64,000 nt of DNA from Gemmatimonadales bacterium (GTDB lineage Bacteria > Gemmatimonadota > Gemmatimonadetes > Longimicrobiales > Gaopeijiaceae), in assembly GCA_050485865.1 (NCBI GenBank), contig JBJHCE010000003.1, positions 1,506 through 65,505 on the forward strand, written 5' to 3'. How positions within the stretch are numbered: position 1 is the stretch's first letter; the number at the start of each line of letters is the position of its first letter. Position numbers and translations under genes: made by a program. A model generated the notes under the pieces. It was not told the origin of the DNA, did not search any database, and saw only the letters and a list, made by a program, of their open reading frames with translations. Below, piece by piece: positions 16,801 to 34,869 of this stretch.

Positions 16801-16840
16801 GGGCGGGGCCGAAATGGCTGCAGGAAGGGTGTAAAGGGCC

Positions 16841-18383: not shown

Positions 18384-18392
18384 CGGGTCACC

Positions 18393-18713
18393 TCACCGGA
18401 ACTCCTGGATCACGACCAGGATCAGGATCGCGATCAGGGGAAGGGGGATCGCCGCGAGGATCCACACCCGTCGCTCCTCGAAGCGGAGGTGCATGTAGTA
18501 GAGGGCCACGAGAAGGGCGCTCACGAGGGAGATCGCGACGAGAAGGGTGATGGAAAGCCACTTGGGCATCCCGATGAGGGAGACCCCCACCTTCGCGAAC
18601 ATGAGGACGGCGAGGACCCCCCAGATCATCATGTAGGGTGGAGGGGCGTGCGCCGGGGCCGGGGGGGCTCCCCCCTCCCCTCCTCCCGTGGACGGTTCGG
18701 CGTGCTGCATCAC
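18393..18713 (-). CDS. ctaF: Cytochrome c oxidase subunit IV (prokaryotic COX4-type)
   Basis: About 100 aa with three hydrophobic helices. Its position directly after subunit III and the pattern Y..IW..L..LT..EV-like fit this family. Confidence 0.7.
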   Translation of the reverse strand: MMQHAEPSTGGGEGGAPPAPAHAPPPYMMIWGVLAVLMFAKVGVSLIGMPKWLSITLLVAISLVSALLVALYYMHLRFEERRVWILAAIPLPLIAILILVVIQEFR

Positions 18714-18720
18714 ATCCCCC

Positions 18721-19347
18721 CTAGATCAGGTAGACGATGGTGAAGAGGACGATCCAGACCAGGTCCACGAAGTGCCAGTAGAGACCCATGGCCTCGACGC
18801 CTCCAAGGCGTTTCGAGGTGAAGTCGCCGCGGCGGGCCCTCAGGTAGATCCATACGAGGCAGAGGACCCCGATGGATACGTGGAGCCCGTGGAACCCGGT
18901 CATCAGGTAGAAGGTCGAGCCGTAGAGGGGCCCACCCGCGGCGGCGAAGGCGGCGGCGTTCGGGACGAAGCCGTCGTGGACCAGGTGGATGTACTCGTAG
19001 ACCTGCACGCCCACGAAGAAGCTTCCCAGGAGGATCGTGGCGAGGAGCCACCGCTGGAGCCCCTTCTGGTCGTCGTGCTCGATGGCGGCGAAGGCCTTCA
19101 CCATCGTGACCGAGGAGCAGATCAGGATGAAGGTGTTGAAGGCGGTGAGGGGGACGTTCAGCACCTCGCCGGGGGCGGCGAAGTGGTCCGGGTGGGCAAA
19201 GCGCAGGATGATGTACGCCCCGATCAGCGAGGTGAAGAACATCACCTCCGAGAGGAGGAACACCCACATTCCGAGCTTCGCGTTGTACATGTCGAGGCCC
19301 CGTTCGGGGCGGCGGCCCCCGATCGGGAGGACGGCGGCGTGGCTCAT
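18721..19347 (-). CDS. ctaE: Cytochrome c oxidase subunit III
   Basis: LGMWVFLLSEVMFFTSLIGAY, YLMTGFHGLHVSIGV and YWHFVDLVWIVLF. ATG 19347 overlaps the CoxI stop (ATGA). Confidence 0.9.
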   Translation of the reverse strand: MSHAAVLPIGGRRPERGLDMYNAKLGMWVFLLSEVMFFTSLIGAYIILRFAHPDHFAAPGEVLNVPLTAFNTFILICSSVTMVKAFAAIEHDDQKGLQRWLLATILLGSFFVGVQVYEYIHLVHDGFVPNAAAFAAAGGPLYGSTFYLMTGFHGLHVSIGVLCLVWIYLRARRGDFTSKRLGGVEAMGLYWHFVDLVWIVLFTIVYLI

Positions 19348-21179
19348 GGCGCACCTCCGGGGGCTCCGGCGGGGGCCGGTTCGGGTGGGGGCGGGGGTGG
19401 GCCGCCCGATGCGGGTCCCGGCGGGCCCTCGCGGACGGCCTCCGGGGGCTCGTCCTGGGGGAAGAAGTCCAGGGCGCGGCCGGGCACGCTGTACTCGTAC
19501 GGCCCGCGGTGGACGAGGGGCCAGGTGGGGAAGTTTCCGTGCGGCGGAGGCGAGGGCACCGTCCACTCCAGGGAGTTCGCCCGCCAGGGGTTCGCCTCGG
19601 CCTTCTTCCCCCACCACATCGACAGGAGGAAGTTCGCCGCGAAGATGAGCTGCACGGCGAAGAGGGCGAAGACCGCGTTCGAAATGAAGACGTTCGTTCC
19701 CTGCAGGGGAGCGAGGAAGTCGTACTGGGTCGTGTCGTAGAGGCGGCGCATCATCCCCTGGAGCCCGAGCGAGTGCATCGGGAAGAACACCAGGTTGTAG
19801 AGGACGAAGGTGGCGAAGAAATGCACGTATCCCCAGGTCCGGTTCATCATCCGCCCGAACATCTTCGGGTACCAGTAGATGATCCCGGCGAAGATCGCGA
19901 AGAGGCTCCCGCCGAAAAGGACGTAGTGGATGTGCGCGACGATGAAGTACGTGTCGTGGATGTGGATGTCCACGGGGCTCGACGCCATGAAAATCCCCGA
20001 GAGTCCCCCGATGATGAAGAGGGACACGAAGGCCGCCGCGTGGAGGAAGGGGACGTGGAAATGGATGCTCCCCTTCCAGAGGGTGCCGAGCCAGTTGAAC
20101 ACCTTGATCGCCGAGGGGACCGCGATCACGAGCGTCGTCACCATGAAGGTGGTGCCGAGCATCGGGTTCATCCCGCTCATGAACATGTGGTGTCCCCACA
20201 CGATCCAGCCGAGGAAGGCAATGGCGATGATCGCGAGCACCATGGCGTGGTAGCCGAAGATCGGCTTCCGGGCACCGTTTGCGAGGACCTCCGAGACGAT
20301 CCCGAAGGCCGGGAGGATCAGGATGTAGACCTCCGGGTGGCCGAAGAACCAGAAGAGGTGCTGCCAGAGCAGGGGCTCACCCCCGTGCTCCGGAAGGAAG
20401 AAGGTGGTCCCGAGGGTCTGGTCCGTGAGGAGCATGATGAGCGCCCCCGCCAGGATGGGCATGGCGAGGAGCGCCAGAATCGCGGTGACGAAGAGGGCCC
20501 AGACGGTGAGAGGGAGCCGGAACCAGGTCATTCCCGGGGCACGCATGCTCACGACCGTGGTGATGTAGTTCACCGCTCCCGTGATCGAGCTGAAGCCCAG
20601 GATGAAGAGGGACAGGAGCCAGAGCTGCTGCCCAAGGTAGACCCCGGTGTACTCCCCCGATGCCGAGAGGGGGGCGTAGGCGGTCCATCCGGCACCCGCC
20701 GCTCCGCCCTCCACCAGGAAGCTCGCGAGCATGATGAATCCTGCCGGTACCGCAAGCCAGAACGAGAGCGCGTTCAGCTTCGGGAAGGCCATGTCCGGCG
20801 CCCCGATCTGGAGCGGGATCAGGAGGTTCCCGAAGACCCCCACCAGGAGGGGCATGATCGCGAAGAAGATCATGAAGGTCCCGTGCATGGTCACGAGACT
20901 GTTGTAGAACTCGGGGAGGATGATGCCGCCGGGCGCCATCGTGTCGGGGAGCCCGCCTCCTCCCGGAAGCGGCTGTCCGGGAAAGGCCAGCTGCCACCGC
21001 ATGATCACCGCCAGGAGCCCGCCCAGGAGGAGGAATACGAGGCTCATGACCAGGAACTGCTTCGCGATCATCTTGTGATCGGTGGAGAAGATGTAGGTCC
21101 GGATGAAGCCCGGCTCGTGGTGCCCTTCTCCGGCGAACCCCCCGATGTACCAGTCGGAGGCGGGTTTCGTGGCGCTCAT
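19344..21179 (-). CDS. ctaD: Cytochrome c oxidase subunit I (A-family haem-copper oxidase)
   Basis: STDHKMIAKQF, WFFGHPEVYILILPAFG (CuB His/Tyr region), GHHMF, and HDTYFIVAHIHYVLFGG (haem a/a3 His). It has a proline-rich C-terminal tail. ATG 21179 overlaps the CoxII stop. Confidence 0.95.
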   Translation of the reverse strand: MSATKPASDWYIGGFAGEGHHEPGFIRTYIFSTDHKMIAKQFLVMSLVFLLLGGLLAVIMRWQLAFPGQPLPGGGGLPDTMAPGGIILPEFYNSLVTMHGTFMIFFAIMPLLVGVFGNLLIPLQIGAPDMAFPKLNALSFWLAVPAGFIMLASFLVEGGAAGAGWTAYAPLSASGEYTGVYLGQQLWLLSLFILGFSSITGAVNYITTVVSMRAPGMTWFRLPLTVWALFVTAILALLAMPILAGALIMLLTDQTLGTTFFLPEHGGEPLLWQHLFWFFGHPEVYILILPAFGIVSEVLANGARKPIFGYHAMVLAIIAIAFLGWIVWGHHMFMSGMNPMLGTTFMVTTLVIAVPSAIKVFNWLGTLWKGSIHFHVPFLHAAAFVSLFIIGGLSGIFMASSPVDIHIHDTYFIVAHIHYVLFGGSLFAIFAGIIYWYPKMFGRMMNRTWGYVHFFATFVLYNLVFFPMHSLGLQGMMRRLYDTTQYDFLAPLQGTNVFISNAVFALFAVQLIFAANFLLSMWWGKKAEANPWRANSLEWTVPSPPPHGNFPTWPLVHRGPYEYSVPGRALDFFPQDEPPEAVREGPPGPASGGPPPPPPEPAPAGAPGGAP

Positions 21180-21913
21180 CGGCCTTCCTCGGCGTCGGGT
21201 TCGGGTGCGGGTTCGGAAGGCGCCTGGGCGCGCTGCCCACGGGCCTCCTCGCGGGCTGCGATCCGCTCCGCCTCCCATGCGGCGAAGTCGGCCTCGGACA
21301 GGGCGATCACCCGGCCGTCCATCCGGAAGTGTCCGACCCCGCAGAGTTCGGCGCACCCGAGGGAGTAGTCGCCCGCTTCGGTGACCTCGAACCAGATCGG
21401 GATCGTCATTCCGGGGACCGCGTCCTGTTTCACCCGGAAGGCGGGAACGAAGAAGGAGTGGATCACGTCGGCCGCGGTGAGGTGCACGACGACGGGGCGG
21501 TTCACCGGCACGTGGACCCGGTTCAGGAGGGTGAAGTCGGCATCGGTCCCGAACACCCCGTCACCTCCGGCGTAGCGCGCCTCCCATTCGAACTGCCGGG
21601 CCTCCACGTGGATCTCGTAGGCCCCGTCGGGAAAGCGGGCCGGGTCCTTCACCTCGTCCCAGACGCTCTTGCTCATGAGGCCGAGGGCCACGACGATCAC
21701 GAAGGGAACCGCGGTCCAGGCGATCTCGGCCTTCGTGCTCCCGTGGATGTAGGCCGCCGGCACCCCCTCGCGTCTCCTGTAGCGGAAGAGGAACCAGAAG
21801 AGGAGAAACTGGGTCAGGAGGAACACGACCCCGGTGATCACGAGGATCAGGTAGTACAGCCGGTCGATGTCGGCGGCGTAGGTGGTCACCGCCGTGGGAA
21901 GGGTCCAGTCCAT
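21176..21913 (-). CDS. ctaC: Cytochrome c oxidase subunit II (CuA; no fused cytochrome c domain)
   Basis: Two N-terminal TM helices. CuA ligands are in DVIHSFFVPAFRVKQD and CAELCGVGHFRM. There is no CxxCH anywhere in the protein. Confidence 0.9.
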   Translation of the reverse strand: MDWTLPTAVTTYAADIDRLYYLILVITGVVFLLTQFLLFWFLFRYRRREGVPAAYIHGSTKAEIAWTAVPFVIVVALGLMSKSVWDEVKDPARFPDGAYEIHVEARQFEWEARYAGGDGVFGTDADFTLLNRVHVPVNRPVVVHLTAADVIHSFFVPAFRVKQDAVPGMTIPIWFEVTEAGDYSLGCAELCGVGHFRMDGRVIALSEADFAAWEAERIAAREEARGQRAQAPSEPAPEPDAEEGR

Positions 21914-21917
21914 CCGG

Positions 21918-22691
21918 TTACGCTCCGGCCCGGAAGGTGAAGGAAACCGAGGCCGTCTCGCCGGTGGTCACCGTGACCCGGGCTTCCTGCGTGCCCAGGT
22001 CCGGGTGCCAGGCTTCGAGGAGGTACTCTCCGGGGGGGAGCCGGGCCAGGTTGAAGGTTCCCGCCTCTCCGGTCACCGCGTGGTAGGGGTGGGGGAGGAT
22101 GCCCAGGTAGGCGCCCATCCACCCGTGAACGTCGCAGCGCAGCGGGATCATCACCTCCGGGAGGGGGAAGGTCCGATCCGTGTCCATGTTGACCGGCTGG
22201 CTCACGTTGAAGCCCCGGTTCGTGCTCGGCGTGGCGTTGATGTTGTGCATGAGTCCGTCGGAGTTCCGGAGCGTCACCGTCTGGTTCGTCATCGCTCCCG
22301 CTACCCGTGGGACGTACCGGCACGCCACCTGGTCGATGAGGACGGCCTCGGCGGGGACGGGGAATTCCATTCCCTCGAGCCCCTCCTTCACGTAGACGAA
22401 GACGTCGGCCAGGTGACCGCCACGGACCTTCACGTTCTCCCGGACGGGGGGTTCGTCGTAGCGCTCGAAGCAGGCGCGCTCGCTCTCCATGTCGATGGGC
22501 TCGGGCGCAGGCGGAGTCCCCTCGAACATGACCATGCCGGAGACCGAACCGGCGGTGGCCACGTCGAAGGGCATCTCGGTGACCTGCCGGGCTGCGGGCG
22601 CGGCGTCGTCCCCGCCTCCGCAGGCGGCGACTCCGAGGGCCAGGGCGAGGGCGGCGAAGGGGAGCGTGCAGCGGTGGGTCAGGGTGTTCAT
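21918..22691 (-). CDS. Cupredoxin-like lipoprotein with C-terminal carboxypeptidase-regulatory-like beta-sandwich
   Basis: Lipobox LALGVAAC. A type-1 copper-like ligand set is present: H in DGLMHNINA plus C-x2-H-x2-M in RCDVHGWM. The C-terminal GTFNLARLPPGEYLLEAW is CarboxypepD_reg-like. Confidence 0.6.
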   Translation of the reverse strand: MNTLTHRCTLPFAALALALGVAACGGGDDAAPAARQVTEMPFDVATAGSVSGMVMFEGTPPAPEPIDMESERACFERYDEPPVRENVKVRGGHLADVFVYVKEGLEGMEFPVPAEAVLIDQVACRYVPRVAGAMTNQTVTLRNSDGLMHNINATPSTNRGFNVSQPVNMDTDRTFPLPEVMIPLRCDVHGWMGAYLGILPHPYHAVTGEAGTFNLARLPPGEYLLEAWHPDLGTQEARVTVTTGETASVSFTFRAGA

Positions 22692-24313
22692 GGGTCCTCC
22701 GGGGTCGGAGTTGGGGTGATGCGTTCACGTCGCTGGGCCCGGGCCACCACGAGGAGGCCGAGCCCGCCGGTGAGAACCATCGCGAGGAGGGGAGCCACGA
22801 AGACCGTGGGCGGGGTCTCGGGCTCCAGGTGGATGAAGAACCAGGAGCTGATGGAGCCCCGGGTCCCGTCCTCCCCGTTGTCACCGTCCCAGGCCTGGAA
22901 GGCGATGGGGATCGAGACCCCCTCCACGAAGGTGAGATCGGCGTCGGGATCCGCGGGCTCGAGGGGGCGACGAAGGAGGAGCTCCCATCGGCCGTCATCC
23001 CAGCGGGCCTCGGCAGAGATCCCGGCGCCGGGAATGTCCTGGACGTCGCGGACCCCCCGGGCCCGGGCCCGGACGGCGGTCCCGGGGCGATCGCTGGACC
23101 ACTGCCAGAGGAGGACCGGACTGCGGGCATCGCCCTTCAGGAAGTACGGCCGGTCCATACCCCGGGGGAGTTCAAGGGGGAGCTGAACGGTGATCCGGTC
23201 CGGCCGGGGGCCGGGCTCCGGGGGTTCGCCGTCGTGGGGCTCCATGACCTCGAGGACCCGGGCCTGGAAGTCTGCCCAGAGCGGGTCCGGGCTCCGGGAC
23301 CGATCGTGCCAGGCCAGGTGGAGAACGAGCTCGGCCCCGTCGTGGAAACCCCGGACCTCCACCGCGTTGATCGAGGGATCGAACCAGCGGGGCGCCACGA
23401 TGATCTGGGCCACGAGGGGAATGTGGAACGCCTCGGCCTCGCCCCATCGCGGATCGTCGAGCCCGGTGGGGAGAGTTCCGCCGTCGAGGCGGGGAATCCG
23501 GATCACCTCCCGGATCCGGGGCTCCCGCTCCGGCGAGAGGCTCCGGACGTAGTGGGCAAGGCTCCAGAGTTCGTCGGCGGTGACCACCCCCGCGTCCACG
23601 AGATCGGCGGACGAGGGCATCGGGGTCCCGTCGAGCCCGGTGAGGATCCGCCGGTGGATGTCCTCCACCGAACCCCCTCCGTCGAACCTCCAGTTCCTGG
23701 TGAGGTCAGCGGCGCGAATCGGATAACCCCAGTCATCTTCCAGGGTGGGCGCACTCGACCCGGCACCCCGCCCGGAGTCACCGTGGCACTGCCAGCACTC
23801 GATTCGCTGGAAGACCTCCCGACCCTCGGCGATCCGCTCGGCACTCGCCCTGGGCGCCCGACCGAAGGGGAGGGGGTCGGGCTGCCCGAAGGTCTCGAAC
23901 CCCGGGTAGAAGGTCTTCAGGTACGCCACGAGGGCGTCCCGGTCCCGGCGGGAGAGGTGACGCTCCCACCCGGGCATGGAGGTCCCGGGCATCCCCTTGT
24001 CGATGACGCGCAGGATGTCTGCGTCGGTGGGAAGCTCCCCCCCGGCGGTGGTCCGGACCTGGTAGACCCCCCGGGTGAAGTCCCTCGGGCGGGGAAGCAT
24101 GGTGCCCGCAGCCGGGCCCAGACCGTCGCCCTCGGCCCCGTGGCACGAGGCACACCATCGGTCGTAGAGCTCCCGCCCCCGGTCCAGGTCCTGGGCCTCG
24201 GCCCCTCCCGCCCCGGCGGCGGCCGCGGCCAGGAACCCCGCGCAGGCCAGGCGGCGGCCGGCGGCCGCAGGGATCCGCCACCTGGAAATGGACCCGCCCC
24301 TCCGCATCTCCAT
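22688..24313 (-). CDS. Di-haem cytochrome c fused to an EB_dh-type (ethylbenzene dehydrogenase gamma-like) haem-b domain, C-terminal TM anchor
   Basis: Two CxxCH motifs (CASCH, CWQCH). The distal domain has LHLAWHD...VQLP...GM..PYF...LWQW...W.LLLRRPL...IAFQAWDGDNGE..G..SISSW. TM VFVAPLLAMVLTGGLGLLVVA. The ATG shares one nucleotide with the upstream stop (TGATG at 24311-24315). Confidence 0.7.
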   Translation of the reverse strand: MEMRRGGSISRWRIPAAAGRRLACAGFLAAAAAGAGGAEAQDLDRGRELYDRWCASCHGAEGDGLGPAAGTMLPRPRDFTRGVYQVRTTAGGELPTDADILRVIDKGMPGTSMPGWERHLSRRDRDALVAYLKTFYPGFETFGQPDPLPFGRAPRASAERIAEGREVFQRIECWQCHGDSGRGAGSSAPTLEDDWGYPIRAADLTRNWRFDGGGSVEDIHRRILTGLDGTPMPSSADLVDAGVVTADELWSLAHYVRSLSPEREPRIREVIRIPRLDGGTLPTGLDDPRWGEAEAFHIPLVAQIIVAPRWFDPSINAVEVRGFHDGAELVLHLAWHDRSRSPDPLWADFQARVLEVMEPHDGEPPEPGPRPDRITVQLPLELPRGMDRPYFLKGDARSPVLLWQWSSDRPGTAVRARARGVRDVQDIPGAGISAEARWDDGRWELLLRRPLEPADPDADLTFVEGVSIPIAFQAWDGDNGEDGTRGSISSWFFIHLEPETPPTVFVAPLLAMVLTGGLGLLVVARAQRRERITPTPTPEDP

Positions 24314-25113
24314 CAGTGCTCCTCCCAGGTACGGGGCGAGAGCCCTGCCTGGCGGTAGAGGAAGAGGGTCACCGCCCAGATCTCGTCGGCGGTCATGAAG
24401 TCCTCCCAGGCGGGCATGGCCGAGTTCCAGGGGGCACCCTCCCGGGGAAGGCCGGCCCCTCCCTTCGCGATCCGCCAGAAGACGTAACTCTCGGTGAGCT
24501 GGGCGATCGTTCCTCCGCCGCGGAGGGGGAGGGGCGCGGGGTTGAAGCCGTGGGCGTAGTGACCCTGCCCGTCCAGGTAGTCGCCGTGGCAGGGCATGCA
24601 GTTCCGCGTGTAGAGGGCGAGCCCCTCGGCGTAGGCCTCGTCCTCCCGCCCCGAGCCGCGTATGGGGTTCTCGAGCCCGTCCAGGCGGATCGTCTCGCCG
24701 CGGAAGGTGATCTGGGTGGGAGGCGCGGGGTGGACGGACCTGAGCCCCGCGGGGGCCGAGACCTTGGGGCGGACCGTGTCGTAGGTCATGAAGCCCACGA
24801 GGAGGGGGAGGGCCACCAGGACCGCGAGGCGCACCCGACGCCGCTCCGGAAGGATCAGGGTCTCCCGGATGGGGCGCTTGAAGGCCTTCCACCGGTCCTC
24901 GTTGTCACTCACCCAGACGAGCACCCCGAGGAGGACGGAAAGCATGTACTGGATCACCACGCTCCGGGGGACCGGTGCGCTCGAAACCCCGACGAGGGGG
25001 GGGAGGTACGGGATCCCCCAGCGGACCAGGGCGTAGGCGAGGAGAAGGACCGCTGCGCCCTGGGCGAAGGGGGTCCGGGGCCAGAGGCGGAAGCGCCGCG
25101 CCGGGGCGTTCAC
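24313..25113 (-). CDS. Membrane-anchored mono-haem cytochrome c (three N-terminal TM helices)
   Basis: Single CMPCH, with the distal Met candidate in NSAMPAW. The GTG start overlaps the upstream stop (GTGA at 25110-25113). Confidence 0.8.
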   Translation of the reverse strand: MNAPARRFRLWPRTPFAQGAAVLLLAYALVRWGIPYLPPLVGVSSAPVPRSVVIQYMLSVLLGVLVWVSDNEDRWKAFKRPIRETLILPERRRVRLAVLVALPLLVGFMTYDTVRPKVSAPAGLRSVHPAPPTQITFRGETIRLDGLENPIRGSGREDEAYAEGLALYTRNCMPCHGDYLDGQGHYAHGFNPAPLPLRGGGTIAQLTESYVFWRIAKGGAGLPREGAPWNSAMPAWEDFMTADEIWAVTLFLYRQAGLSPRTWEEH

Positions 25114-25907
25114 CGGAGCCCCGCCAGGTAGCGCACCACGGCCTCGAGCTGGGCCGCGGTGAGGCGCTCACCGAAGTAGGTGGGCATCACCCCCACGAGC
25201 TCCTCGTACCCCGGGGACACCACGGCCGGGGGGTCGAGGATCGCGCGGCGGAGTTCCTCGGGGGTGCGGCGGGCCCCGATCCCGTCCAGGGCCGGGCCGA
25301 GCGCGGTCCCCTCCCCTGCCAGCACGTGGCACATCACGCACTGCTCCCGTACGAAGGTCTCCGGGTCGTCGGCGCCGGCGATGCCGACGGCTCCGGGCGC
25401 TCCGGCGGCGGGGACGCCGGGGCTCGCATCGGTGTCGGGAATGTCCGCTGCCGTCACGGTGATCTCCCCCCCGAGGCTTTCCAGGTAGGCCACGAGGGCC
25501 CAGATCTGCGCCGGGGCCATGGTCCGGTCGGCAGGGGGCATGATCGGCTCGTACCCCGGGACCATGTGCTCCTGCGGGCGCACAAGCGCCTGGTAGAGGA
25601 ACTCCTTGCACGACATTCCCGGGACCCGGTCGCCGCAGCGGGCCCCGATGGGTCCCTCCCCACGGAAGTCGGTGGAGAGGTTCGGCCCCCGGGCTCCGGG
25701 CGACTCGGCGTGGCAGGCCAGGCATCCGCCGCCCCCCCGGTAGAGGGCGGCCCCGGCTTCGGCCAGCTCCTCCGGGGTCACGTCGGCGCCGAAGGCCACG
25801 TCCAGGGGCACCTCCGACTCCACCTGCGGGATCACGTTCGCCACCAGGGTGAAGAGGATGATGGTCCCGGCCACGACCCCCGCCACCTTGAAATCCACCG
25901 CCGACAT
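25110..25907 (-). CDS. Membrane-anchored di-haem cytochrome c
   Basis: N-terminal TM VAGVVAGTIILFTLVANVI. Two CxxCH motifs (CLACH, CVMCH). The ATG abuts the stop of the CydA-like gene (TGA|ATG). Confidence 0.85.
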   Translation of the reverse strand: MSAVDFKVAGVVAGTIILFTLVANVIPQVESEVPLDVAFGADVTPEELAEAGAALYRGGGGCLACHAESPGARGPNLSTDFRGEGPIGARCGDRVPGMSCKEFLYQALVRPQEHMVPGYEPIMPPADRTMAPAQIWALVAYLESLGGEITVTAADIPDTDASPGVPAAGAPGAVGIAGADDPETFVREQCVMCHVLAGEGTALGPALDGIGARRTPEELRRAILDPPAVVSPGYEELVGVMPTYFGERLTAAQLEAVVRYLAGLR

Positions 25908-27716
25908 TCAGGCCTCCCGGGGGTTCGGATGGAGGGGCGCGGTCGAGGGGGCCGCCGCGGGCTGGGGCTTCACGATCATCCCCCCGATCCAGAAGACGAA
26001 GGAGATCATTCCGAGGAAGATCAGGACGCAGGCGCTGATCACGATGGCCGCGTATCCGAGCGCCGGGGTCGCCGCGTGGGGCGAGGTGTCGCGCATCACC
26101 TCCCAGATGTGCCAGTGCTGGCGAATCCCGCTTCGGGCGAACCCCATGAGCCCCATGAGCCAGGTGAAGGTCACGACCAGCACGAAGAGGGCGTACTGGG
26201 CGCGCTCGGGCATCTCTCCCCAGCGGATCGCCCCCCGGGATTCGGCCTTCCGGGTCAGGAGGAGGTCCAGGACGACCACGGCCACGATGGAGCCCAGCAC
26301 CCAGAGCACCTGGTAGACCGAGAATCCGATCCGGACAATGGCCTCGACGAAGTAGCCGTAGACCCCGTAGAAGAGGACGACGGCAGCACAGATCGCGAGC
26401 ACGATCCCCTGGGCGATCGTCCCCTCCCGGGCCCACGACACGGTGGGAATCTTGTTCGCCCGGCGGTACATCAGGAAGGACAGGAAGGTGGTGAGGATCA
26501 TGAGGTTCACCGCCGTGTTCTTGGCACTCATGACCCCGAGCACCCCCAGGAAGGGGTGGTGCGTCCCCCCCATGGCGGCGAGCTCCTCCCGGTCCGCGAT
26601 CATGGAGTGGGGGGTGGCCCACACGATGAAGCCCACCACGAGGACGGCGAGCATGTACTTCGTGTACGGAGCGAACCGCTCTCCTCCGGGGATGCGACCG
26701 AGGCCGATCCAGAGGTAGTAGTTGCCCGCGAGGAAGAGGATCCCGATCAGGAAGGCCTGCACGATCCAGAGCCAGCTCATGAAGCCGCCCATCATCGTGA
26801 CGCCCATCTGCTGGTTGTACTCGTAGATCTCCCGCCCCAGCCAGTAGCCCGCGAAGGGGAGCACGAGGAAGACCGCGATGGCGATGAGGTTCCCCACGTA
26901 CGCCATCCAGTCGTAGTGGGCGCGCTCCTCCGGGGTCTTCGCCTTGAGGAATCGGTACGCCGCGTAGGCCGCCACCACCGCCCCACCGAACACGGCGTTC
27001 GCGATGAGCCGGTGGATGTTGATGGGCATCCAGGTGGCGTTCGCGAAGGCGCTCCAGAAGAGCACCTCCCGGGGGGAGGTGTCGGGGGTCACGTACCCCG
27101 GGGGGCTCATCATGTAGGTGAGCCAGGAGTTCGCGATGAACATCACGATCGTGCCCCAGATGTTCAGGAGGATCCCGAGCCCCCAGTGTCCGATCTTGGC
27201 CCGACCGGCCTTCCACCGGTCCCACGTGTAGTAGTAGGTGTAGAGGGTGGCCGTCTCGAAGAAGAAGAGACCGGCGTAGAAGTACATGGAGTAGCCGAAG
27301 ATCTCGGCCAGGTATCCCCAGAGCGTGGGGTAGAGGGTCACGAGGAGGAAGAGGAGGAGCCCGCCCCAGAGGGCCGTGGCGCTGTAGGCCACGAGGAGGA
27401 GGCGGGTGAATTCCCGGGCGAGCCGGTCGTACTTCTCGTCCTTCCCCCAGATCGCGATCGCCTCGGCGATCACCGCGAACATCGGCACCCCGAGCACGAA
27501 GGCGGCGAACATGAGGTGCACCTGCGCCGCCACCCACACGGCGATCCGGCTCCCCACCAGGGGAAAGTCCCGCCCGTACTCCGCCACCCGGTACTGGTAC
27601 TGGAAGCCCTGGGCGGCGAGGGGCTCGGCAAGGATCACCACGAGGGCCACCCCGGCGGCGAGGGCCGCGAGCGCCCACGCGATCCGGGCCTTCCCGCCCT
27701 GGCTCCGGCCCGTCAT
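25908..27716 (-). CDS. CydA-like protein (cytochrome bd subunit I superfamily), extended to about 13-14 hydrophobic segments, no CydB partner
   Basis: Aligns to the E. coli CydA N-terminal half: AAQVHLMF (His19 context), FFFETATL (FFLESTF), TWDRW (GWDR), IGHWGL (His126 context), ANSWLTYMMSP (ANGWMQNP) and NIHRLIANAVFGG (His186 context). ATG 27716 overlaps the radical-SAM stop. Confidence 0.8.
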   Translation of the reverse strand: MTGRSQGGKARIAWALAALAAGVALVVILAEPLAAQGFQYQYRVAEYGRDFPLVGSRIAVWVAAQVHLMFAAFVLGVPMFAVIAEAIAIWGKDEKYDRLAREFTRLLLVAYSATALWGGLLLFLLVTLYPTLWGYLAEIFGYSMYFYAGLFFFETATLYTYYYTWDRWKAGRAKIGHWGLGILLNIWGTIVMFIANSWLTYMMSPPGYVTPDTSPREVLFWSAFANATWMPINIHRLIANAVFGGAVVAAYAAYRFLKAKTPEERAHYDWMAYVGNLIAIAVFLVLPFAGYWLGREIYEYNQQMGVTMMGGFMSWLWIVQAFLIGILFLAGNYYLWIGLGRIPGGERFAPYTKYMLAVLVVGFIVWATPHSMIADREELAAMGGTHHPFLGVLGVMSAKNTAVNLMILTTFLSFLMYRRANKIPTVSWAREGTIAQGIVLAICAAVVLFYGVYGYFVEAIVRIGFSVYQVLWVLGSIVAVVVLDLLLTRKAESRGAIRWGEMPERAQYALFVLVVTFTWLMGLMGFARSGIRQHWHIWEVMRDTSPHAATPALGYAAIVISACVLIFLGMISFVFWIGGMIVKPQPAAAPSTAPLHPNPREA

Positions 27717-29053
27717 GCCTTCCCTCCCCGCCCGAGGAAGAAGGGGAGCCGCTTCGAGAAGTCCACCGGCATCTCCTCCCGGACCCGGGCCATCAGCGCC
27801 TCGTCCACGACCGCCACCCCCCGGTCCCGGGCAAAGCGCTCCACCCGGTCCACCACCACCCCCCGGACGAAGCTCGGAATCCGCTCCACCCGGGCCCGGG
27901 CGCCTTCGGTCCAGGGGAGTGCCGGCTCGGGGATCGAGGCCCCGTAGGTGACCGACGCGCGCGGGCGGACAAGGGGCTCGTCCCCGTCCGGCTCGTACGC
28001 GCACGAGAGGTCCGGCCCGAGGAGGTCGCCGGTCTCGGCAAAGGCCCGGGCGCGACACCCCCCGCACACCTCCCGGTACGCGCACCGCCCGCACTTTCCG
28101 CCGGGCGTTCCTTCACGAAGGGCCTGGAACACCGCGGAAGTGCGCCAGATCTCGCCGAAGGAGGCCTCCGCCAGGTCCCCCGCCTCCACCGGGGAGTAGG
28201 GACAGGGCGTCACCTTCCCCTCGGGAGTGATGCGGCAGTACTGGAGCCCGCAGGGACACCGGGTCCGGTAGTTCAGGAGGGGGGAGTCCGGCTCCCCGGC
28301 GTGGGCGAGGCGCATGAGCTGCGGCTGGCACTTCGAGCGAACCAGCATCCGGCCCCGGAAGCGGGCCTCGAGGGCCAGGAGCTCCTCCAGGACCTCCTCG
28401 TTCTCCGCGGGGGAGAGCCCCTGCATCCCCGACCCCCGCCCGGTGGGAACGAGGAAATAGAGGTTGAAGGCCACGGCACCCATTTCGGCGGCCCAGGCCA
28501 CGAGTCCCGGGAGCTCGTCCCGGTTTCCCCGGGTGAGGCTCGTCTGCACGATGAAGTCGAGGCCGTGGCGCCCGAGTCGCTCCACCGCGGCAAGGGTATC
28601 GGAGAGGGCGCCCGAGCCGTGGCGAAAGCGGTCGTGGTACGCGGGGCGGAGCGAGTCCACGCTCACCGCCACGCCCTGCACCCCCGCTTCCATGAGCGAC
28701 CGGATCCGGGTGTCCGTGAGACGCGTTCCGTTCGTACCCACCACCACCGTGGCGCCCCCTTCCGTGGCCCGGGAGGCGAGAAGCTCCAGGTCGTCGCGAA
28801 GGAGGGGCTCCCCGCCGGAGAGGATCAGCATCGGCGCGGGGCTCACCTCCAGGATCTCTCCGAGGATGCGGAGGCATCGGTCCGTCGGGAGCTCGTCGGC
28901 CGCGGCGTGCCAGGACCCGGCCGCGATGTAGCAGTGGGCGCACGCCAGGTTGCAACGCTTCGTCAGGTTCCAGGCCACCACGTGGGGAACGGGCGGGGCA
29001 GGCTCCGACACCGGCGTGGACGGCGCTTCGTCGAGCGCCCGGGCGAGGCTCAC
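27713..29053 (-). CDS. Radical SAM/SPASM enzyme of the NirJ/AhbC/AhbD (tetrapyrrole side-chain) type with a C-terminal PCP_red-like domain
   Basis: CNLACAHCY (CxxxCxxC), SGGEPLL, NLYFLVPTGRG, and a Cys-rich tail CPCGLQYC...PCPY...GKCGRCAYREVCGGCRARA. The C terminus is LPWTEGARARVERIPSFVRGVVVDRVERFARDRG. The GTG start overlaps the upstream stop (GTGA at 29050-29053). Confidence 0.8.
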   Translation of the reverse strand: MSLARALDEAPSTPVSEPAPPVPHVVAWNLTKRCNLACAHCYIAAGSWHAAADELPTDRCLRILGEILEVSPAPMLILSGGEPLLRDDLELLASRATEGGATVVVGTNGTRLTDTRIRSLMEAGVQGVAVSVDSLRPAYHDRFRHGSGALSDTLAAVERLGRHGLDFIVQTSLTRGNRDELPGLVAWAAEMGAVAFNLYFLVPTGRGSGMQGLSPAENEEVLEELLALEARFRGRMLVRSKCQPQLMRLAHAGEPDSPLLNYRTRCPCGLQYCRITPEGKVTPCPYSPVEAGDLAEASFGEIWRTSAVFQALREGTPGGKCGRCAYREVCGGCRARAFAETGDLLGPDLSCAYEPDGDEPLVRPRASVTYGASIPEPALPWTEGARARVERIPSFVRGVVVDRVERFARDRGVAVVDEALMARVREEMPVDFSKRLPFFLGRGGKA

Positions 29054-31035
29054 GCCTCCTCCTCCATGAATCGTTCCACCGCCGCCCTTGCCTCGGCGGG
29101 TGTCGCCGTCTTCATGTCCACCGGGCACTTCTCGACCTGGGCCTCGACATCGCGGATCGGACACCGGGTGACCCCCTGGGCCTTCGCCTCCTCGATGAAT
29201 TTCCTCATCTCGGGCGAGAGCCCGTCCACCCCCTCGGCCGCGGCCTTGAGCTGCTTCGTCTGGAGCTCGCGGAACATGACGAGCATGGTGTCCATGTCGA
29301 ACTCGTCGGCCTCGATCATGGCCTGCTTGTTCTCGTCCATGACCCGGGTCGTGACCCGCCAGAGGTCGTGTTCCTTCGCGAAGCGCTCCACGGTGTTGCG
29401 GGCCAGGGGGCGCGCGATCAGGGGCACGGCCCGAAGGCGTTCGAAGGCTTCCGCGGTCCAGACCACCGGGTCGGTGGCGGTACGCTCCCGGGACTGGCTA
29501 TGCCCCGTGTAGGGGCACGCCACGGTCACCGTGGGGACCTCGGGCTCGGGGTCCGCGTCCACCCCTTCCACCACGGTCCGCCGCATCGCCTCCTCCGCCT
29601 TCACCTCGGCCAGGGCAAGCTCTTCGGCGGTCCCGATCCCCATGATCATCTGCATGTGGGTGGGAAGGAGCTTCCGGATCGCCTCGTCGAGGCGGTCGCC
29701 GGTCACGGTGGGAAGCGCATGTCCCCCGTTCCCGTACTCCTCGAGGACGAACTCCTCCACCGCCTTCCGGGCGATCCCCAGGGCGAAGGGCGGCACCCGG
29801 AGGATCCGCACCTCGGCGTCGGGGGCCCACTCGAGCCCCTGTTCCCCGTCTTCCTCGATCCAGGGGATCTCGTCGGGGCGGACGTCGGTGGTCCCCACGA
29901 GGAGCACGTTCGCAGGCGTGAGGCGGCAGAGGTTCTCGGCCTGGGAACCCAGATCGGTGCCGTCGATCCGGTGCCCCCCGTGCCGCGCCATCACGACGAG
30001 CGAGGGGTCGAGCTCCTCCACCCACTGGAGGATGCACTGGAAGGGCTTCCCGATCAGGATCTGGGTCTCCACCTCCACGTCGGGGAACTCGGAGGCCATG
30101 ACCTGCGCCCGCTTGAGGTTCGCCTGGCAGAGCTTCAGGAGCCCCTTGTCGATGATGTTGTTGTGAAGGGCTTCCTGCTCCTCGAACTTGAAGACCTTCG
30201 CGGCCTGCGCCGAGAGCACGTCCTTGATGTTGCCGAAGACGACGTGGTGATACTCCACGTCGAAGGCGGAGCAGACGTGGAGCTTCGCCCCGAACTCCCG
30301 GGCGAGTTCGAGGGCCACCCGCATCGCCTTGTACGCGTAGGAGGAGCCGTCCACGCATACGATCCAGGATCCGCCCTCGAGCGGTCGGTCGTTCCGGACG
30401 ATCAGGGTGTCCCGTTCGACCTTCCGGATGACCCGGGCGGTGACGCCCCCGAGCTGTGAGAGGGGCTGGAGGCCGATTCCGTGGGCGCCGATGCAGAGGA
30501 GGTCGTATTCACGACCGCTCTCGCCCGCGAGCTTCTCGTCCTGCTCCTCGTCCTCGGCCACGATCCGTCCGTCCGCCCCGAGGCGAACGTCGCTCCGGAC
30601 CGTCGTACCCCCGTCGTACTTGTCGGCGATGTTGGGATCGAAGCCGATGAGACTGGGAAGGCGCCCCGCTCCCCGGTTCGCCTCACGGATGATCTCCTCG
30701 TAGTTGATTCCCTCGAGGAGCTGCCGTGCAAGGGGGACTCCGGCCTCCCGGCACCGCCGTTCCGTCTGGTCCAGGAAGGAGTCCGAGATGAGCTGGAGCC
30801 CCTTCTCGATCAGCTTGTCGTGGACCTTCCGCTGCCGCCGGATCTCTTCCGGGGTCTGGAACTGTGCAGGGAGACCGGTTTCGAGCTGCCGGAACCGGAC
30901 GTCGTGAAGCCGGGCGGCGTAGACGTGGTTTCCGGTGATCCGGCCGTCGGACCTGCGGCAGAGCTCCACCGCACGGTTCACGGCCCAGCTGGAATGGTCG
31001 GAGTTGTCGACCGGAACGAGGACTTCGCGGTACAT
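29050..31035 (-). CDS. Tandem universal-stress-protein (USP) domains fused to two PCP_red-like domains
   Basis: USP-1 is MYREVLVPVDNSDHS...LLCIGAHG...VIRKVERDTLIV. USP-2 is WIVCVDGSSYAYKA...VVMARHGGH...GSQAENLCRLTPANVLLV. These are followed by EWAPDAEVRILRVPPFALGIARKAVEEFVLEE and VVWTAEAFERLRAVPLIARPLARNTVERFAKEHD. A GAGG Shine-Dalgarno precedes ATG 31035. Confidence 0.8.
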   Translation of the reverse strand: MYREVLVPVDNSDHSSWAVNRAVELCRRSDGRITGNHVYAARLHDVRFRQLETGLPAQFQTPEEIRRQRKVHDKLIEKGLQLISDSFLDQTERRCREAGVPLARQLLEGINYEEIIREANRGAGRLPSLIGFDPNIADKYDGGTTVRSDVRLGADGRIVAEDEEQDEKLAGESGREYDLLCIGAHGIGLQPLSQLGGVTARVIRKVERDTLIVRNDRPLEGGSWIVCVDGSSYAYKAMRVALELAREFGAKLHVCSAFDVEYHHVVFGNIKDVLSAQAAKVFKFEEQEALHNNIIDKGLLKLCQANLKRAQVMASEFPDVEVETQILIGKPFQCILQWVEELDPSLVVMARHGGHRIDGTDLGSQAENLCRLTPANVLLVGTTDVRPDEIPWIEEDGEQGLEWAPDAEVRILRVPPFALGIARKAVEEFVLEEYGNGGHALPTVTGDRLDEAIRKLLPTHMQMIMGIGTAEELALAEVKAEEAMRRTVVEGVDADPEPEVPTVTVACPYTGHSQSRERTATDPVVWTAEAFERLRAVPLIARPLARNTVERFAKEHDLWRVTTRVMDENKQAMIEADEFDMDTMLVMFRELQTKQLKAAAEGVDGLSPEMRKFIEEAKAQGVTRCPIRDVEAQVEKCPVDMKTATPAEARAAVERFMEEEA

Positions 31036-31418: not shown

Positions 31419-31448
31419 AACATAGAGGACCCTTTCCGGGGATGTCAA
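31419..31448 (-). promoter_or_regulatory. Sigma-70-like promoter candidate TTGACA-N18-TATGTT
   Basis: Minus-strand TTGACA (31448-31443), an 18-nt spacer and TATGTT (31424-31419), inside a locally AT-enriched patch. It would give a ~375-nt leader before the USP gene start at 31035. Confidence 0.4.
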
Positions 31449-31479: not shown

Positions 31480-32223
31480 TCATCCGCGGAGTCCCGCGAC
31501 CCGTCCCACGAGCCCTCGAGCCGCCAGGAGGGAGATCCCCGCCAGGAGCAGGGTGGAGAGTGCGGGGCCGAACCAGTGGACGAGGGCCGCCGCCCCTGGA
31601 ACGGTCCCGGTGGCGCCTGGCGGCCCGCTCGCCACCCGGAGGAGCTCCCGATGAAGGGGGCCGAAGGGAAGGAGCGCCTCGAACCGGGCTCCCCAGCCCC
31701 CGGCCTGCGCCGTGCGGAACACGCCGGACCCGTGGAGGAGGAAGAGGGTGGCCACCGCGGCGAAGAGGGCGCCCTCCGCCATGGACCGCGCGGCGGAGGC
31801 GACCCACAGTCCCACGAGGTTCGCCGCCGCGAGGGCAAGGGCGAGGGTCGCGGCAAGGACCAGGAAGTCGCGGGCTCCGCCACCCGACAGGGCCACGATC
31901 AGGATCACCGATGGCGAGAGCTGGACCAGGTCCACCCCCACCTGGGCCGCGGTCCGCTCGACCACGAACCGGCCCGGCGGAAGCCCGGTCATGACGACCC
32001 TGCCCAGGAAGCCCGATTCAGCATCCCGGAGCACCGGGATCGCGGAACCCATGGTTCCGAAGAGGACGAAGAGCACGGCGTAGACCGCTGCCGCGTGGAA
32101 CGCAGGTGCCGCACCGAGCGCCAGCGGAACCACGAGAAGAAGGGGCACGCCGACGTTCAGGGCGAAGAGGCGCTTCCGCCGAAGCGAAAGGCGCCACTCG
32201 AGCCGTGCCAGGGCGCCCCTCAC
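31480..32223 (-). CDS. ABC-2-type transporter permease
   Basis: About 6 hydrophobic helices. The GTG start overlaps the ATPase stop (GTGA at 32220-32223). Confidence 0.65.
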   Translation of the reverse strand: MRGALARLEWRLSLRRKRLFALNVGVPLLLVVPLALGAAPAFHAAAVYAVLFVLFGTMGSAIPVLRDAESGFLGRVVMTGLPPGRFVVERTAAQVGVDLVQLSPSVILIVALSGGGARDFLVLAATLALALAAANLVGLWVASAARSMAEGALFAAVATLFLLHGSGVFRTAQAGGWGARFEALLPFGPLHRELLRVASGPPGATGTVPGAAALVHWFGPALSTLLLAGISLLAARGLVGRVAGLRG

Positions 32224-33230: not shown

Positions 33231-33677
33231 CTACATGCCTTCCAGGCCCAGGTCGGTCCGGGCCCGATCCATGACCTCCGGCGAGATCGTCCCGATCCCA
33301 TGCTCCCGGGCGTAGTCGGTGTAGATCCGCTTCACCATTCCGCGAACGAACCCCGGCACCCCCTGGAGGCGGAGCACCGCCTCCTCCGTCCAGATCACCG
33401 GGATCGGCGTCGTCGGAGCCGACGTGTCGACGAAGGCATCACTCCGCCCGCCATCGAGGGAGCCGCGCACCGTTTCGAAGGGCTGGGCAGGGACCTCCCT
33501 CCCGCCGACCTTCACCCCCATGGTGCTCACGAGCTGGGTCTCCATCGGGTTCGTGAGCAGCGCCATTTCCCTTGCACACCCGGGGCACCGGAAGAGGGTG
33601 GCCATCGTCCCGTCGCCGGGGAGGCGCCGCTCGGCGTAGGCCATGACCTGGTCGCAGGGGATGCAGAGGAATTTCAT
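33231..33677 (-). CDS. Zn-ribbon + PCP_red-like domain protein
   Basis: N-terminal CIPC...CPGC ribbon. The C-terminal domain is VIWTEEAVLRLQGVPGFVRGMVKRIYTDYAREHG. The ATG overlaps the Mrp stop (ATGA at 33674-33677). Confidence 0.7.
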   Translation of the reverse strand: MKFLCIPCDQVMAYAERRLPGDGTMATLFRCPGCAREMALLTNPMETQLVSTMGVKVGGREVPAQPFETVRGSLDGGRSDAFVDTSAPTTPIPVIWTEEAVLRLQGVPGFVRGMVKRIYTDYAREHGIGTISPEVMDRARTDLGLEGM

Positions 33678-34609
33678 GGTCCCTTCTCCTCGCCACCCGG
33701 CGCCGGGGGCGAGGCACCGACTCCAGGGTCCGTTCCTCCGTCGCCGGCCGCCCCCAGCGCGGCCAGGAGCTTCGCTGCAAGGCCCTCGAAGCGGGTCGAG
33801 TCCGGAGCCCCTGCATCGGTGCTGGAGCCGGCACCGGGGTCCAGGGGAATGGATGCCCAGAGGGGGAGGCCGTAGCGAAGGCGAAGGCCTTCTCCCCCTT
33901 CGCCGGGGAAGAGGGCGTGGATCTCCCCGCATCCGGGACAGCGGAACCCGTCCATGTTCGACACGAGTCCCGTGATCGGGACGCCCGCCTCGACCACGAG
34001 CCGGAGCGAGCGGGCCACGACCGCCTCGGAGAGCGTCCCCGGCGTCGTCACCACCACCGCGGCGTGAAGCCCGGGAACGAGCTCAAGGAGCCTTGCGATC
34101 TTGTCCGTTCCGGGCGGAACGTCCACGAGCAGCAGGTCCAGCTCGCCCCACGCCACGTCCCCCAGGAACTCACGGAGGGCCGAGGTCTCGACCGTGCTCT
34201 GCCACAGGTGCCCATGGCCCCCGGGTCCCCGCCAGCGAAGGGGAGCATCGTCCCCTCCCTGGAGAAGCTCCATCGAGATGACCCGGACCCCGGATGCGCC
34301 CGTGGCGGGCTCGATCCCGCCCGAGCCCTCCCCGAGCCTCGCCTCCCGTACCCCGAGCATCCGCGCCATGGAAGGGCCGTTCAGGTCCGCATCCACCACC
34401 CCCACCCGCTTCCCCGCCCCGCCAAGCGCCGACGCGAGTCCCGCGGTCACGAAGCTTTTCCCGACCCCCCCCTTCCCACTCACGATGGCCACGATCGCCC
34501 CGACCCGGGCGAGCCGGCCGGCCAGGCGGGCGTGCTGGTCCAGCACCTGCTCGAGGAGCCCGGAGCCGGTCTCGTGCTCCACCTCGTTGTACGTCCGGAA
34601 CGGGCGCAT
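33674..34609 (-). CDS. Mrp/NBP35/ApbC-family Fe-S cluster carrier ATPase
   Basis: Deviant Walker A SGKGGVGKS, DADLNGPS, and the CPGC cluster-bridging motif (FRCPGCGEIH). Confidence 0.9.
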   Translation of the reverse strand: MRPFRTYNEVEHETGSGLLEQVLDQHARLAGRLARVGAIVAIVSGKGGVGKSFVTAGLASALGGAGKRVGVVDADLNGPSMARMLGVREARLGEGSGGIEPATGASGVRVISMELLQGGDDAPLRWRGPGGHGHLWQSTVETSALREFLGDVAWGELDLLLVDVPPGTDKIARLLELVPGLHAAVVVTTPGTLSEAVVARSLRLVVEAGVPITGLVSNMDGFRCPGCGEIHALFPGEGGEGLRLRYGLPLWASIPLDPGAGSSTDAGAPDSTRFEGLAAKLLAALGAAGDGGTDPGVGASPPAPGGEEKGP

Positions 34610-34623: not shown

Positions 34624-34869
34624 TCAGGGTGCGAGGAGACGGCCTTCGCCGTCGTGCAGGGTGATGGCGTCGACCGGGCAACTCCGGCACACCCGAACGA
34701 GGGCGTCGCGATCCAGCGCTCCGATCCCATCCCGGAAGACCGCGATCCCGTCGGCGTCGAGGGCAAAGGCCCCGGGCGCCGCATCGAGGCAGTCTCCGAA
34801 CCCGACGCAGATCTGCCGATCGATCCGGGCAACGAGGGCCCCGATCCTGCGCTCCTCGATTCCTTCCAC
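34624..34869 (-). CDS. Small ferredoxin (single cluster, probably 3Fe-4S type)
   Basis: 81 aa. CVGFGDC (C-x2-F-x2-C, middle ligand missing) and a distal CP (CRSCPVDAI), resembling the Fer4_13/15 family. Confidence 0.75.
   Translation of the reverse strand: MEGIEERRIGALVARIDRQICVGFGDCLDAAPGAFALDADGIAVFRDGIGALDRDALVRVCRSCPVDAITLHDGEGRLLAP

Follow-up and report, generated by a model that had tools for sequence, protein, structure and literature searches.

A PCP_red-fused, AhbD/NirJ2-like radical-SAM protein encoded next to a cytochrome bd-like oxidase gene in Gemmatimonadota

The radical S-adenosylmethionine (SAM) enzyme AhbD converts the two propionates on rings A and B of coproheme into vinyl groups, a chemistry analogous to that of HemN/CgdH (PMC7242693), and it takes the place of ChdC in organisms that use the coproporphyrin pathway and have none of the other enzymes of alternative heme biosynthesis (AHB) (PMC13564367; PMC7242693). 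The enzymes from both methanogens and sulfate reducers contain the SPASM motif in its complete form, CX20-33CX17CX36-37CX2CX5CX2CX17-35C, which binds two auxiliary [4Fe-4S] clusters in AhbD from M. barkeri (Fix et al. 2023, PMC10452713). A second system of relevance is the group of “bd-like” OR-N oxidases, the proposed terminal oxidases of bacteria of environmental importance, among them Nitrospira, Nitrospina, the anammox bacteria and “Ca. Manganitrophus”. The OR-N families were derived from sequence and genomic context only, and the operons of the OR-N2 family encode several c-type cytochromes along with an EB_dh subunit that resembles EbdC (Murali, Gennis & Hemp; 10.1101/2021.01.16.426971). 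Here, we describe a gene for an AhbD/NirJ2-like radical-SAM protein that carries a C-terminal PCP_red domain and is situated within an operon of the OR-N2 type. It is located in a 64,000-nucleotide stretch of DNA from a Gemmatimonadales bacterium (contig JBJHCE010000003.1 of assembly GCA_050485865.1, positions 1,506 to 65,505), which is referred to as the window. All coordinates are those of the window, where the gene is found as follows.

27713..29053, minus strand: radical-SAM, SPASM and PCP_red protein, AhbD/NirJ2-like, 446 amino acids, with the PCP_red domain at residues ~381-427

The gene is a real open reading frame (ORF), with a G+C content by codon position of 0.73/0.53/0.90 that is typical of a genuine gene in this genome (the window has a G+C content of ~72%, and homologs of its genes are assigned to Gemmatimonadota/Longimicrobiales), and an identical protein (P0001) is present in a public collection. 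The start codon GTG (29053-29051) is preceded by the Shine-Dalgarno sequence GGAGGAGG and overlaps the TGA codon (29052-29050) of the upstream gene in the sequence GTGA, as read from the DNA. At the other end, the TGA codon (27715-27713) overlaps the ATG codon (27716-27714) of a gene for a CydA-like heme protein in the sequence ATGA, so that there is a 4-nucleotide gene overlap on each flank. The overlap with a heme protein gene was part of the original prediction, and the match of that neighbor to subunit I of cytochrome bd (PF01654, E-value 7.3e-23, 81.2 bits) bears it out. The radical-SAM gene and the CydA-like gene are translationally coupled.

The protein contains a Radical_SAM domain (PF04055, residues 29-175, 84.6 bits), a SPASM domain (PF13186, residues 266-324, 37.1 bits) and a PCP_red domain (PF08369, residues 381-423, 42.4 bits against a gathering cut-off of 32.5). 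Both features of the Radical SAM/SPASM superfamily, a CX3CX2C motif in a partial TIM barrel and a C-terminal SPASM domain with 7-8 cysteines for two auxiliary clusters, are present, as are the strings CNLACAHCY, NLYFLVPTGRG and GKCGRCAYREVCGGCRARA, which had been read as hallmarks of the tetrapyrrole enzymes AhbC, AhbD and NirJ. The search against the NCBIfam profiles that had been proposed along with this reading identified NirJ2 (TIGR04055, 273.9 bits over the full profile length) and AhbD (TIGR04545, 273.1 bits over profile positions 1-339, which is its whole length) as the best matches, followed by TIGR04053 with 241 bits. The best match was thus not an unrelated peptide-maturase family, the outcome that had been named in advance as speaking against the prediction. 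The cut-off is 500 bits for both NirJ2 and AhbD, and the protein misses all curated equivalog cut-offs. The matches to NirJ (TIGR04051, 169.5 bits, cut-off 515) and AhbC (TIGR04546, 139.9 bits, cut-off 650) were partial and located mainly in the N-terminal half, with the best stretch for NirJ restricted to residues 25-210, and the profiles for the peptide maturases MftC, WgkB and PqqE gave 138.9, 121 and 102 bits (cut-offs 265, 650 and 381). The suggested placement among the tetrapyrrole-type radical-SAM/SPASM enzymes stands and is narrowed to the AhbD/NirJ2-like type. Other proteins with the same fusion score similarly against the AhbD profile (for example 279.5 bits for P0251), while the true NirJ2 protein P0295 scores 533 bits and the AhbD-like proteins P0291 and P0294 score 414 and 403 bits. 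Genes of the nir type were found neither in the window nor at the other loci examined, with no nirJ1 nearby and none of the nirS/nirF/D/L/G/H/N context of NirJ. The profile scores indicate that the protein is an AhbD/NirJ2-like tetrapyrrole-type enzyme that falls outside every curated equivalog family. In the databases, its relatives carry the automatic name “AdoMet-dependent heme synthase” (JGI) or are called “radical SAM protein” (NCBI).

The cysteines of the radical-SAM cluster are C34, C38 and C41, and those of the SPASM domain are spaced as C242-X23-C266-X17-C284-X36-C321-X2-C324-X5-C330-X2-C333-X17-C351, which fits the full AhbD motif. All 11 cluster cysteines are invariant, both in an alignment of 20 and in one of 55 diverse members of the clade. 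The AlphaFold2 model of the protein is confident (pLDDT 87.2, pTM 0.87) and predicts three well-defined helices in the PCP_red domain (residues 383-390, 394-410 and 418-427). In a Foldseek search, the closest structures that have been solved were those of the SPASM enzymes PqqE, SkfB, SuiB and anSME (probability 1.00); a structure of AhbD or NirJ was not found in the PDB, either by sequence or by fold.

The extra C-terminal domain resembling protochlorophyllide reductase subunit B had also been noticed before, and the evidence for it was strengthened here. A profile built from the three PCP_red copies in the window matches residues 460-510 of ChlB (2xdq_B) with an E-value of 4.7e-10, and it also matches residues 474-521 of BchB (3aek_B) and the stand-alone domains 2kru and 2l09 (Asr4154). 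The signature W-T-x-E-A...IP-x-F-V-R-G is kept in the domain. The AlphaFold2 model of the domain superposes on the PCP_red domain 2kru, solved by nuclear magnetic resonance, with a root-mean-square deviation of 1.3 Å over 53 columns, and on ChlB (2ynm_D) with a deviation of 1.1 Å, with weak Foldseek E-values in both cases. The assignment is thus genuine at the level of the sequence profile as well as the fold. We found no stated role for the C-terminal PCP_red domain of BchB in the literature on dark-operative protochlorophyllide oxidoreductase (DPOR). To our knowledge, the function of PCP_red has been established in no context.

To place the fusion protein among its relatives, we used a homolog search that covered 1.84 billion representative sequences. 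In every full-length match above ~280 bits, the SPASM domain is followed by between one and four PCP_red domains, while the matches below ~275 bits are ordinary proteins of ~340 amino acids, the size of AhbD and NirJ2, without PCP_red. About 7,000 sequences match at E-values of 1e-30 or lower in a profile search. In a rough neighbor-joining tree, 35 of 37 fused sequences were placed in one clade, apart from P0295 (NirJ2) and the AhbD-like proteins P0291 and P0294. These results suggest that the PCP_red-fused AhbD-like proteins form a large, distinct and essentially monophyletic clade. It has members in Gemmatimonadota, Nitrospirota, Nitrospinota, the anammox bacteria of the Planctomycetota (Brocadia, Scalindua and Loosdrechtia) and Binatia.

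In the window, the radical-SAM gene is part of a tightly packed 16.5-kb cluster in which all genes are located on the same strand. The other genes and one promoter match are listed here in their order in the array, with the radical-SAM gene between the tandem USP gene and the CydA-like gene.

34624..34869, minus strand: single-cluster ferredoxin, 81 amino acids (Fer4_15/Fer4_13)
33674..34609, minus strand: Mrp/NBP35-type P-loop Fe-S cluster carrier (PF10609)
33231..33677, minus strand: small Zn-ribbon (CxxC...CxxC) and PCP_red protein (ZnPCP), 148 amino acids (Pfam)
32220-33230, minus strand: ABC ATPase, drrA-like
31480-~32223, minus strand: ABC-2 permease
31419..31448, minus strand: sigma-70-like promoter match TTGACA-18-TATGTT, by consensus match only
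29050..31035, minus strand: tandem USP domains and two PCP_red domains (USP-PCP), 661 amino acids, the partner directly upstream of the radical-SAM gene (Pfam)
25908..27716, minus strand: CydA-like membrane heme protein of OR-N2 type, 602 amino acids, ~13-14 transmembrane helices (PF01654)
25110..25907, minus strand: membrane-anchored cytochrome c, cytc1 (Pfam, synteny)
24313..25113, minus strand: membrane-anchored cytochrome c, cytc2 (Pfam, synteny)
22688..24313, minus strand: diheme cytochrome c fused to EB_dh, ethylbenzene dehydrogenase gamma-like, heme b (Pfam)
21918..22691, minus strand: lipoprotein with a C-terminal CarboxypepD_reg domain (Pfam)
18393..21913, minus strand: aa3-type heme-copper oxidase genes, contiguous with the cluster
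21176-21913, minus strand: COX2
19344-21179, minus strand: COX1
18721-19347, minus strand: COX3
18393-18725, minus strand: COX4_pro

The CydA-like protein contains the invariant residues H67, Y147, E154, Y161, Y163, H177, H235 and M396, which are offset by 32-36 positions from the signature residues of OR-N2 (Supplementary Table 6, 10.1101/2021.01.16.426971). Judged by these residues and its gene context, the protein belongs with the OR-N2 family of cytochrome bd-like oxidases. An accessory module of radical-SAM, PCP_red, USP and Mrp proteins is mentioned neither in the paper on the OR-N oxidases nor in its supplements (10.1101/2021.01.16.426971).

The cluster has a single intergenic gap, and the promoter match is situated there, upstream of the USP-PCP gene; one such match compares with 0.0 expected in shuffled sequences. 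Among the NCBIfam profiles, the Mrp protein is most similar to MrpORP, whose cut-off of 450 bits it misses with a score of 198.7. The ABC pair represents a variable insert between the genes for ZnPCP and USP-PCP, which occurs in 53-54 of 80 Gemmatimonadota loci, whereas the others lack it. Its ATPase scores 107.9 bits against the profile for the heme exporter CcmA (cut-off 131.6), and we speculate that the pair might export heme for the Sec-exported cytochrome c-EB_dh fusion protein. No nirS, ahbA, ahbB or ahbC, d1 or other heme-synthesis gene was seen among the window ORFs scanned, in agreement with the original prediction, and an Rfam search of the window gave no match.

Some further observations concern the surroundings of these genes. 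The N-terminal part of the lipoprotein (21918-22691) contains the pattern H...C-x2-H-x2-M (LMHNINA...LRCDVHGWMGAY), which by eye resembles a cupredoxin-like type-1 copper site, and lipoproteins of this CarboxypepD_reg type also adjoin the CydA-like genes in two Scalindua-type loci (L087 and L169). Sizeable ORFs with a coding-like codon G+C content and no Pfam match at E-values of 0.001 or lower are located at 2925-4037 and 12672-15056 on the plus strand, and at 17239-18387, 43225-44262, 44608-46155, 46079-46747, 57819-58661 and 58662-59504 on the minus strand, of which the one at 17239-18387 follows directly after the COX4 gene. Genes for a BBE/FAD-binding oxidase (11037-12581) and a type III polyketide synthase (15649-16845), both on the minus strand and upstream of the oxidase cluster, have no relation to the radical-SAM gene.

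The gene order was compared across the best 80 species loci of a genome scan, all of which belong to Gemmatimonadota. The order USP-PCP, radical-SAM, CydA-like, cytochrome c, cytochrome c and cytochrome c-EB_dh is kept wherever the contig permits. The genes for USP-PCP and the CydA-like protein were each present in 78 of the 80 loci, followed by cytc1 (71), ZnPCP (65), Mrp (63), COX2 (62) and ferredoxin (60). For loci outside Gemmatimonadota, we turned to the search of representative sequences, to the profile search and to a metagenome scan. Here, the USP-PCP gene is paired with the gene for the PCP_red-fused radical-SAM protein in L083, L085, L086, L091, L092, L096, L100, L102, L104, L110, L112, L116, L164, L168 and L170, and orthologs of the USP-PCP protein with 32-37% sequence identity are encoded beside the radical-SAM gene in L083, L085, L086, L100, L110, L112, L168 and L170. 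In L084 (10001-13201), the USP, PCP_red, Radical_SAM, SPASM and second PCP_red domains are joined in a single polypeptide of 1066 amino acids (P0492). The genes for Mrp and ZnPCP adjoin the radical-SAM gene in L083, L089, L093, L096, L097, L108, L109 and L116, with the order Mrp, ZnPCP, radical-SAM seen in the last seven of these and a ZnPCP ortholog located beside Mrp in L083; the counts of ZnPCP outside Gemmatimonadota are inflated by cross-matches between PCP_red domains and were used only where Mrp is adjacent.

A CydA-like gene is located within 10 kb in loci from other phyla (L083, L085, L087, L100, L110, L116, L168, L169 and L170). Such a gene is nearby in 8 of the 14 distant loci with at least 5 kb of sequence on both sides, including L087, where it was recognized from its Pfam annotation, and additionally in L170. 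The distant CydA-like neighbors are 39-51% identical to the protein in the window and represent clear orthologs. No CydA-like gene was found within 10 kb in L082 (Brocadia), L084, L086, L088, L092 and L112. As a control, ~50 loci around unfused AhbD-like genes were inspected, none of which contained any of the neighbors described for the fused genes. A search of the accessible literature retrieved no description of the fusion, of a module that shares PCP_red or of a link to bd-like oxidases. The domain architecture, AhbD/NirJ2-like plus PCP_red, is new and comes with a conserved accessory module that is widespread and uncharacterized; the enzyme class is the one originally predicted, and its probable chemistry is known.

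Several distant loci show features of their own. In a Nitrospinota metagenome-assembled genome (L083, 11845-19970), the module is located by genes for a NarJ-like chaperone, a molybdopterin oxidoreductase, a Fer4_11 subunit, a 176-amino-acid protein, the CydA-like protein and a cytochrome c, a neighborhood that constitutes an NXR-like cluster. In L100 (4320-6716) and L112 (4215-6584 and 7514-8251), genes for a HEAT-repeat protein of ~790 amino acids and a CarboxypepD_reg protein precede those for USP-PCP, the radical-SAM protein and HemY, and L112 also contains an FGE-sulfatase-like gene in that stretch.

The genes that follow the radical-SAM gene in other phyla provide a link to heme synthesis. 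The gene directly after it encodes a protoporphyrinogen/coproporphyrinogen oxidase of the HemY type in the Nitrospirota locus L085 (304 bits against TIGR00562, cut-off 97.85) and in L084 (257 bits), and a HemY-like gene has the same position in L100, L110, L112, L113 and L170, which amounts to seven loci outside Gemmatimonadota. The two genes overlap by 4 nucleotides in L110, L112 and L170. In L110 and L170, the genes on a single strand are ordered as CydA-like, cytochrome c, cytochrome c-EB_dh, USP-PCP, radical-SAM and HemY. The 496-amino-acid gene that follows the fusion protein in L084 was considered as a CydA-like candidate and rejected, as it is the HemY gene. In six marine Gemmatimonadota loci, a gene with weak similarity to HemY (25-27% identity) lies upstream of the ferredoxin gene, at a distance of about 2 kb. 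In L168, a gene of the heme-binding HmuY family is located directly downstream of the radical-SAM gene (11981-12685). A DUF420 gene, CtaM-like and with a weak or faint Pfam match, is found directly upstream of the USP-PCP gene in L086 (8123-8797) and L168 (8137-8787).

The substrate, the product and the roles of the PCP_red domain, Mrp, USP-PCP and ferredoxin are what we infer from these data. As the simplest reading, we propose that the members of the clade make heme b through an oxygen-independent decarboxylation of tetrapyrrole propionates and supply it to the co-transcribed respiratory complexes, a proposal for which we consider the chances to be evenly balanced. By analogy with the family, the [4Fe-4S] cluster bound to the CX3CX2C motif would cleave SAM to yield a 5'-deoxyadenosyl radical, and two auxiliary [4Fe-4S] clusters bound to the eight SPASM cysteines would lead the electrons from the oxidation away from the substrate. 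The reaction may take coproheme to protoheme (heme b), as in AhbD, or the same chemistry may be applied to coproporphyrinogen III, one step earlier in the pathway, and feed HemY. The C-terminal PCP_red domain, which is shared with the two neighboring proteins USP-PCP and ZnPCP, probably anchors the enzyme within a small complex of accessory proteins or passes on the tetrapyrrole, while Mrp and the ferredoxin plausibly provide Fe-S clusters and electrons for the three clusters of the enzyme. The OR-N2 cytochrome bd-like oxidase, the cytochromes c that belong to it and the aa3 oxidase are probably co-transcribed with the module, which would supply their heme.

Several points speak against the synthesis of heme b by this clade. 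The scores amount to about half of the AhbD and NirJ2 cut-offs (274 versus 500 bits) and the clade is a separate one, so that an identical function is not established. Ferrochelatase, ChdC, HemN and other hem genes were not found in the window, and HemY was found neither in the window nor in most Gemmatimonadota loci. Furthermore, a lasting linkage to one oxidase family and three dedicated PCP_red, USP and Mrp partners exceed what a housekeeping heme synthase would need, and the presence of an oxygen-independent enzyme within an oxidase operon is not self-explanatory.

It is possible, albeit somewhat unlikely, that the enzyme is a dedicated maturase that turns a heme or heme precursor into a non-canonical tetrapyrrole for the OR-N2 oxidase, such as a partly decarboxylated coproheme or another heme with modified side chains, with the PCP_red proteins acting as carriers. 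In at least four phyla, the enzyme is tightly and repeatedly linked to CydA-like genes of the OR-N2 type, which is what such a maturase would lead us to expect, as are its own clade below the AhbD and NirJ2 cut-offs and its dedicated partner proteins, one of which is naturally fused to it in P0492. The OR-N families themselves were derived from sequence and genomic context only (10.1101/2021.01.16.426971), which leaves room for an unusual heme, and the relatives NirJ and AhbC perform other side-chain chemistry (PMC7242693). However, the cluster contains no second conserved modifying enzyme, the clade also occurs in the loci listed above that have no CydA-like gene within 10 kb, and the coupling to HemY points to mainstream porphyrin synthesis. 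A non-canonical product is also less parsimonious than a heme b synthase, and no feature was found that demands an unusual heme. The absence of nirS, other ahb genes and d1 genes had been taken to point to a special heme modification. The missing ahb and nir genes provide no argument for this: AhbD occurs without the other AHB enzymes, and relatives in the clade are directly followed by HemY, which is an ordinary enzyme of late heme synthesis.

In its broadest form, this alternative would turn Mrp, ZnPCP, USP-PCP and the PCP_red-fused AhbD-like protein, sometimes together with HemY, into a dedicated assembly line that makes a non-canonical heme, for instance a partly decarboxylated or otherwise modified iron porphyrin, and inserts it as the active-site cofactor of the OR-N oxidases, which we regard as unlikely. 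If true, such a heme would serve the OR-N oxidases of nitrite oxidizers, anammox bacteria, manganese oxidizers and Gemmatimonadota.

A variant of the heme b proposal is that the enzyme resembles HemN in function and converts coproporphyrinogen III to protoporphyrinogen IX for a downstream HemY, as a non-orthologous replacement of HemN/HemF. The translational coupling of the radical-SAM and HemY genes in L110, L112 and L170, and their adjacency in L084, L085, L100 and L113, are consistent with this variant, since consecutive steps in a pathway are often co-translated. The chemistry of AhbD has been called analogous to that of CgdH/HemN (PMC7242693). In addition, the variant would suit the hosts: the phyla with members in the clade are mostly Gram-negative, and the protoporphyrin pathway is the usual one there. 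On the other hand, the nearest characterized relatives (AhbD, NirJ and AhbC) all use iron-containing tetrapyrroles, and the HemY family includes the coproporphyrinogen oxidase CgoX, which means that the coupling to HemY cannot separate the two substrates. Taken by itself, we regard this variant as quite unlikely; with it counted in, the decarboxylation of tetrapyrrole propionates becomes a rather probable function of the clade.

It is very improbable that the enzyme is a protein or peptide maturase that, like most SPASM enzymes, introduces a cross-link or another modification, in this case on a neighboring protein such as the CydA-like subunit, one of the cytochromes or USP-PCP. The SPASM architecture would agree with such a role, as would the nearest solved structures, those of the RiPP/peptide enzymes PqqE, SkfB and SuiB, although this likeness is partly due to the lack of a structure for AhbD or NirJ. 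Yet, the maturase profiles score far below the tetrapyrrole profiles and below their own cut-offs, the 4-nucleotide overlaps on both flanks leave no space for an adjacent precursor-peptide gene, and the HemY, HmuY and PCP_red neighbors point to tetrapyrroles. Finally, heme d is a hydroxylated chlorin and not a decarboxylation product, and its hydroxylation differs from radical-SAM decarboxylation. The idea of heme d, which the original prediction had brought up, was rejected, as no feature supports it.

A conserved accessory module that is centered on an AhbD-like protein and travels with the OR-N oxidases makes the identity and the synthesis of their heme testable. Independently of the oxidase, the clade represents a large uncharacterized branch of the heme synthase family that may account for a missing oxygen-independent terminal step of heme synthesis in several phyla. 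The orphan PCP_red domain also gains a second biological context.

The known systems that resemble this locus differ from it to various extents. NirJ and AhbC are fellow members of the superfamily of radical-SAM enzymes that act on tetrapyrrole side chains, but the match to them is much weaker and partial, and a d1 or siroheme context is missing. NirJ2, the AhbD-like paralog from nirJ1/nirJ2 clusters of the Firmicutes type, is the joint best match, but the score is below the cut-off and nirJ1 and nir neighbors are missing. The PCP_red domain matches the ~50 C-terminal residues of BchB/ChlB in DPOR and the stand-alone domains 2kru and 2l09 in sequence and fold, but here it is joined to radical-SAM, USP and Zn-ribbon proteins in non-phototrophs, unlike in BchB/ChlB. 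With the OR-N2 family, the CydA-like protein shares ~14 predicted transmembrane helices, the residues of the signature (His, Met, Glu and Tyr) and an operon content of cytochromes c and an EbdC-like protein. The similarities to AhbD include the N-terminal CX3CX2C motif, the full SPASM motif of eight cysteines with the same spacing and a profile alignment over the whole length, as well as the occurrence without other AHB enzymes; an association with late heme-synthesis genes, seen as HemY among the relatives, may be a further one. The clade differs from AhbD in its lower score (273 versus 500 bits), its separate position in the tree, the one to four added PCP_red domains that are always present, its USP-PCP, ZnPCP and Mrp partners and its placement inside respiratory oxidase operons.

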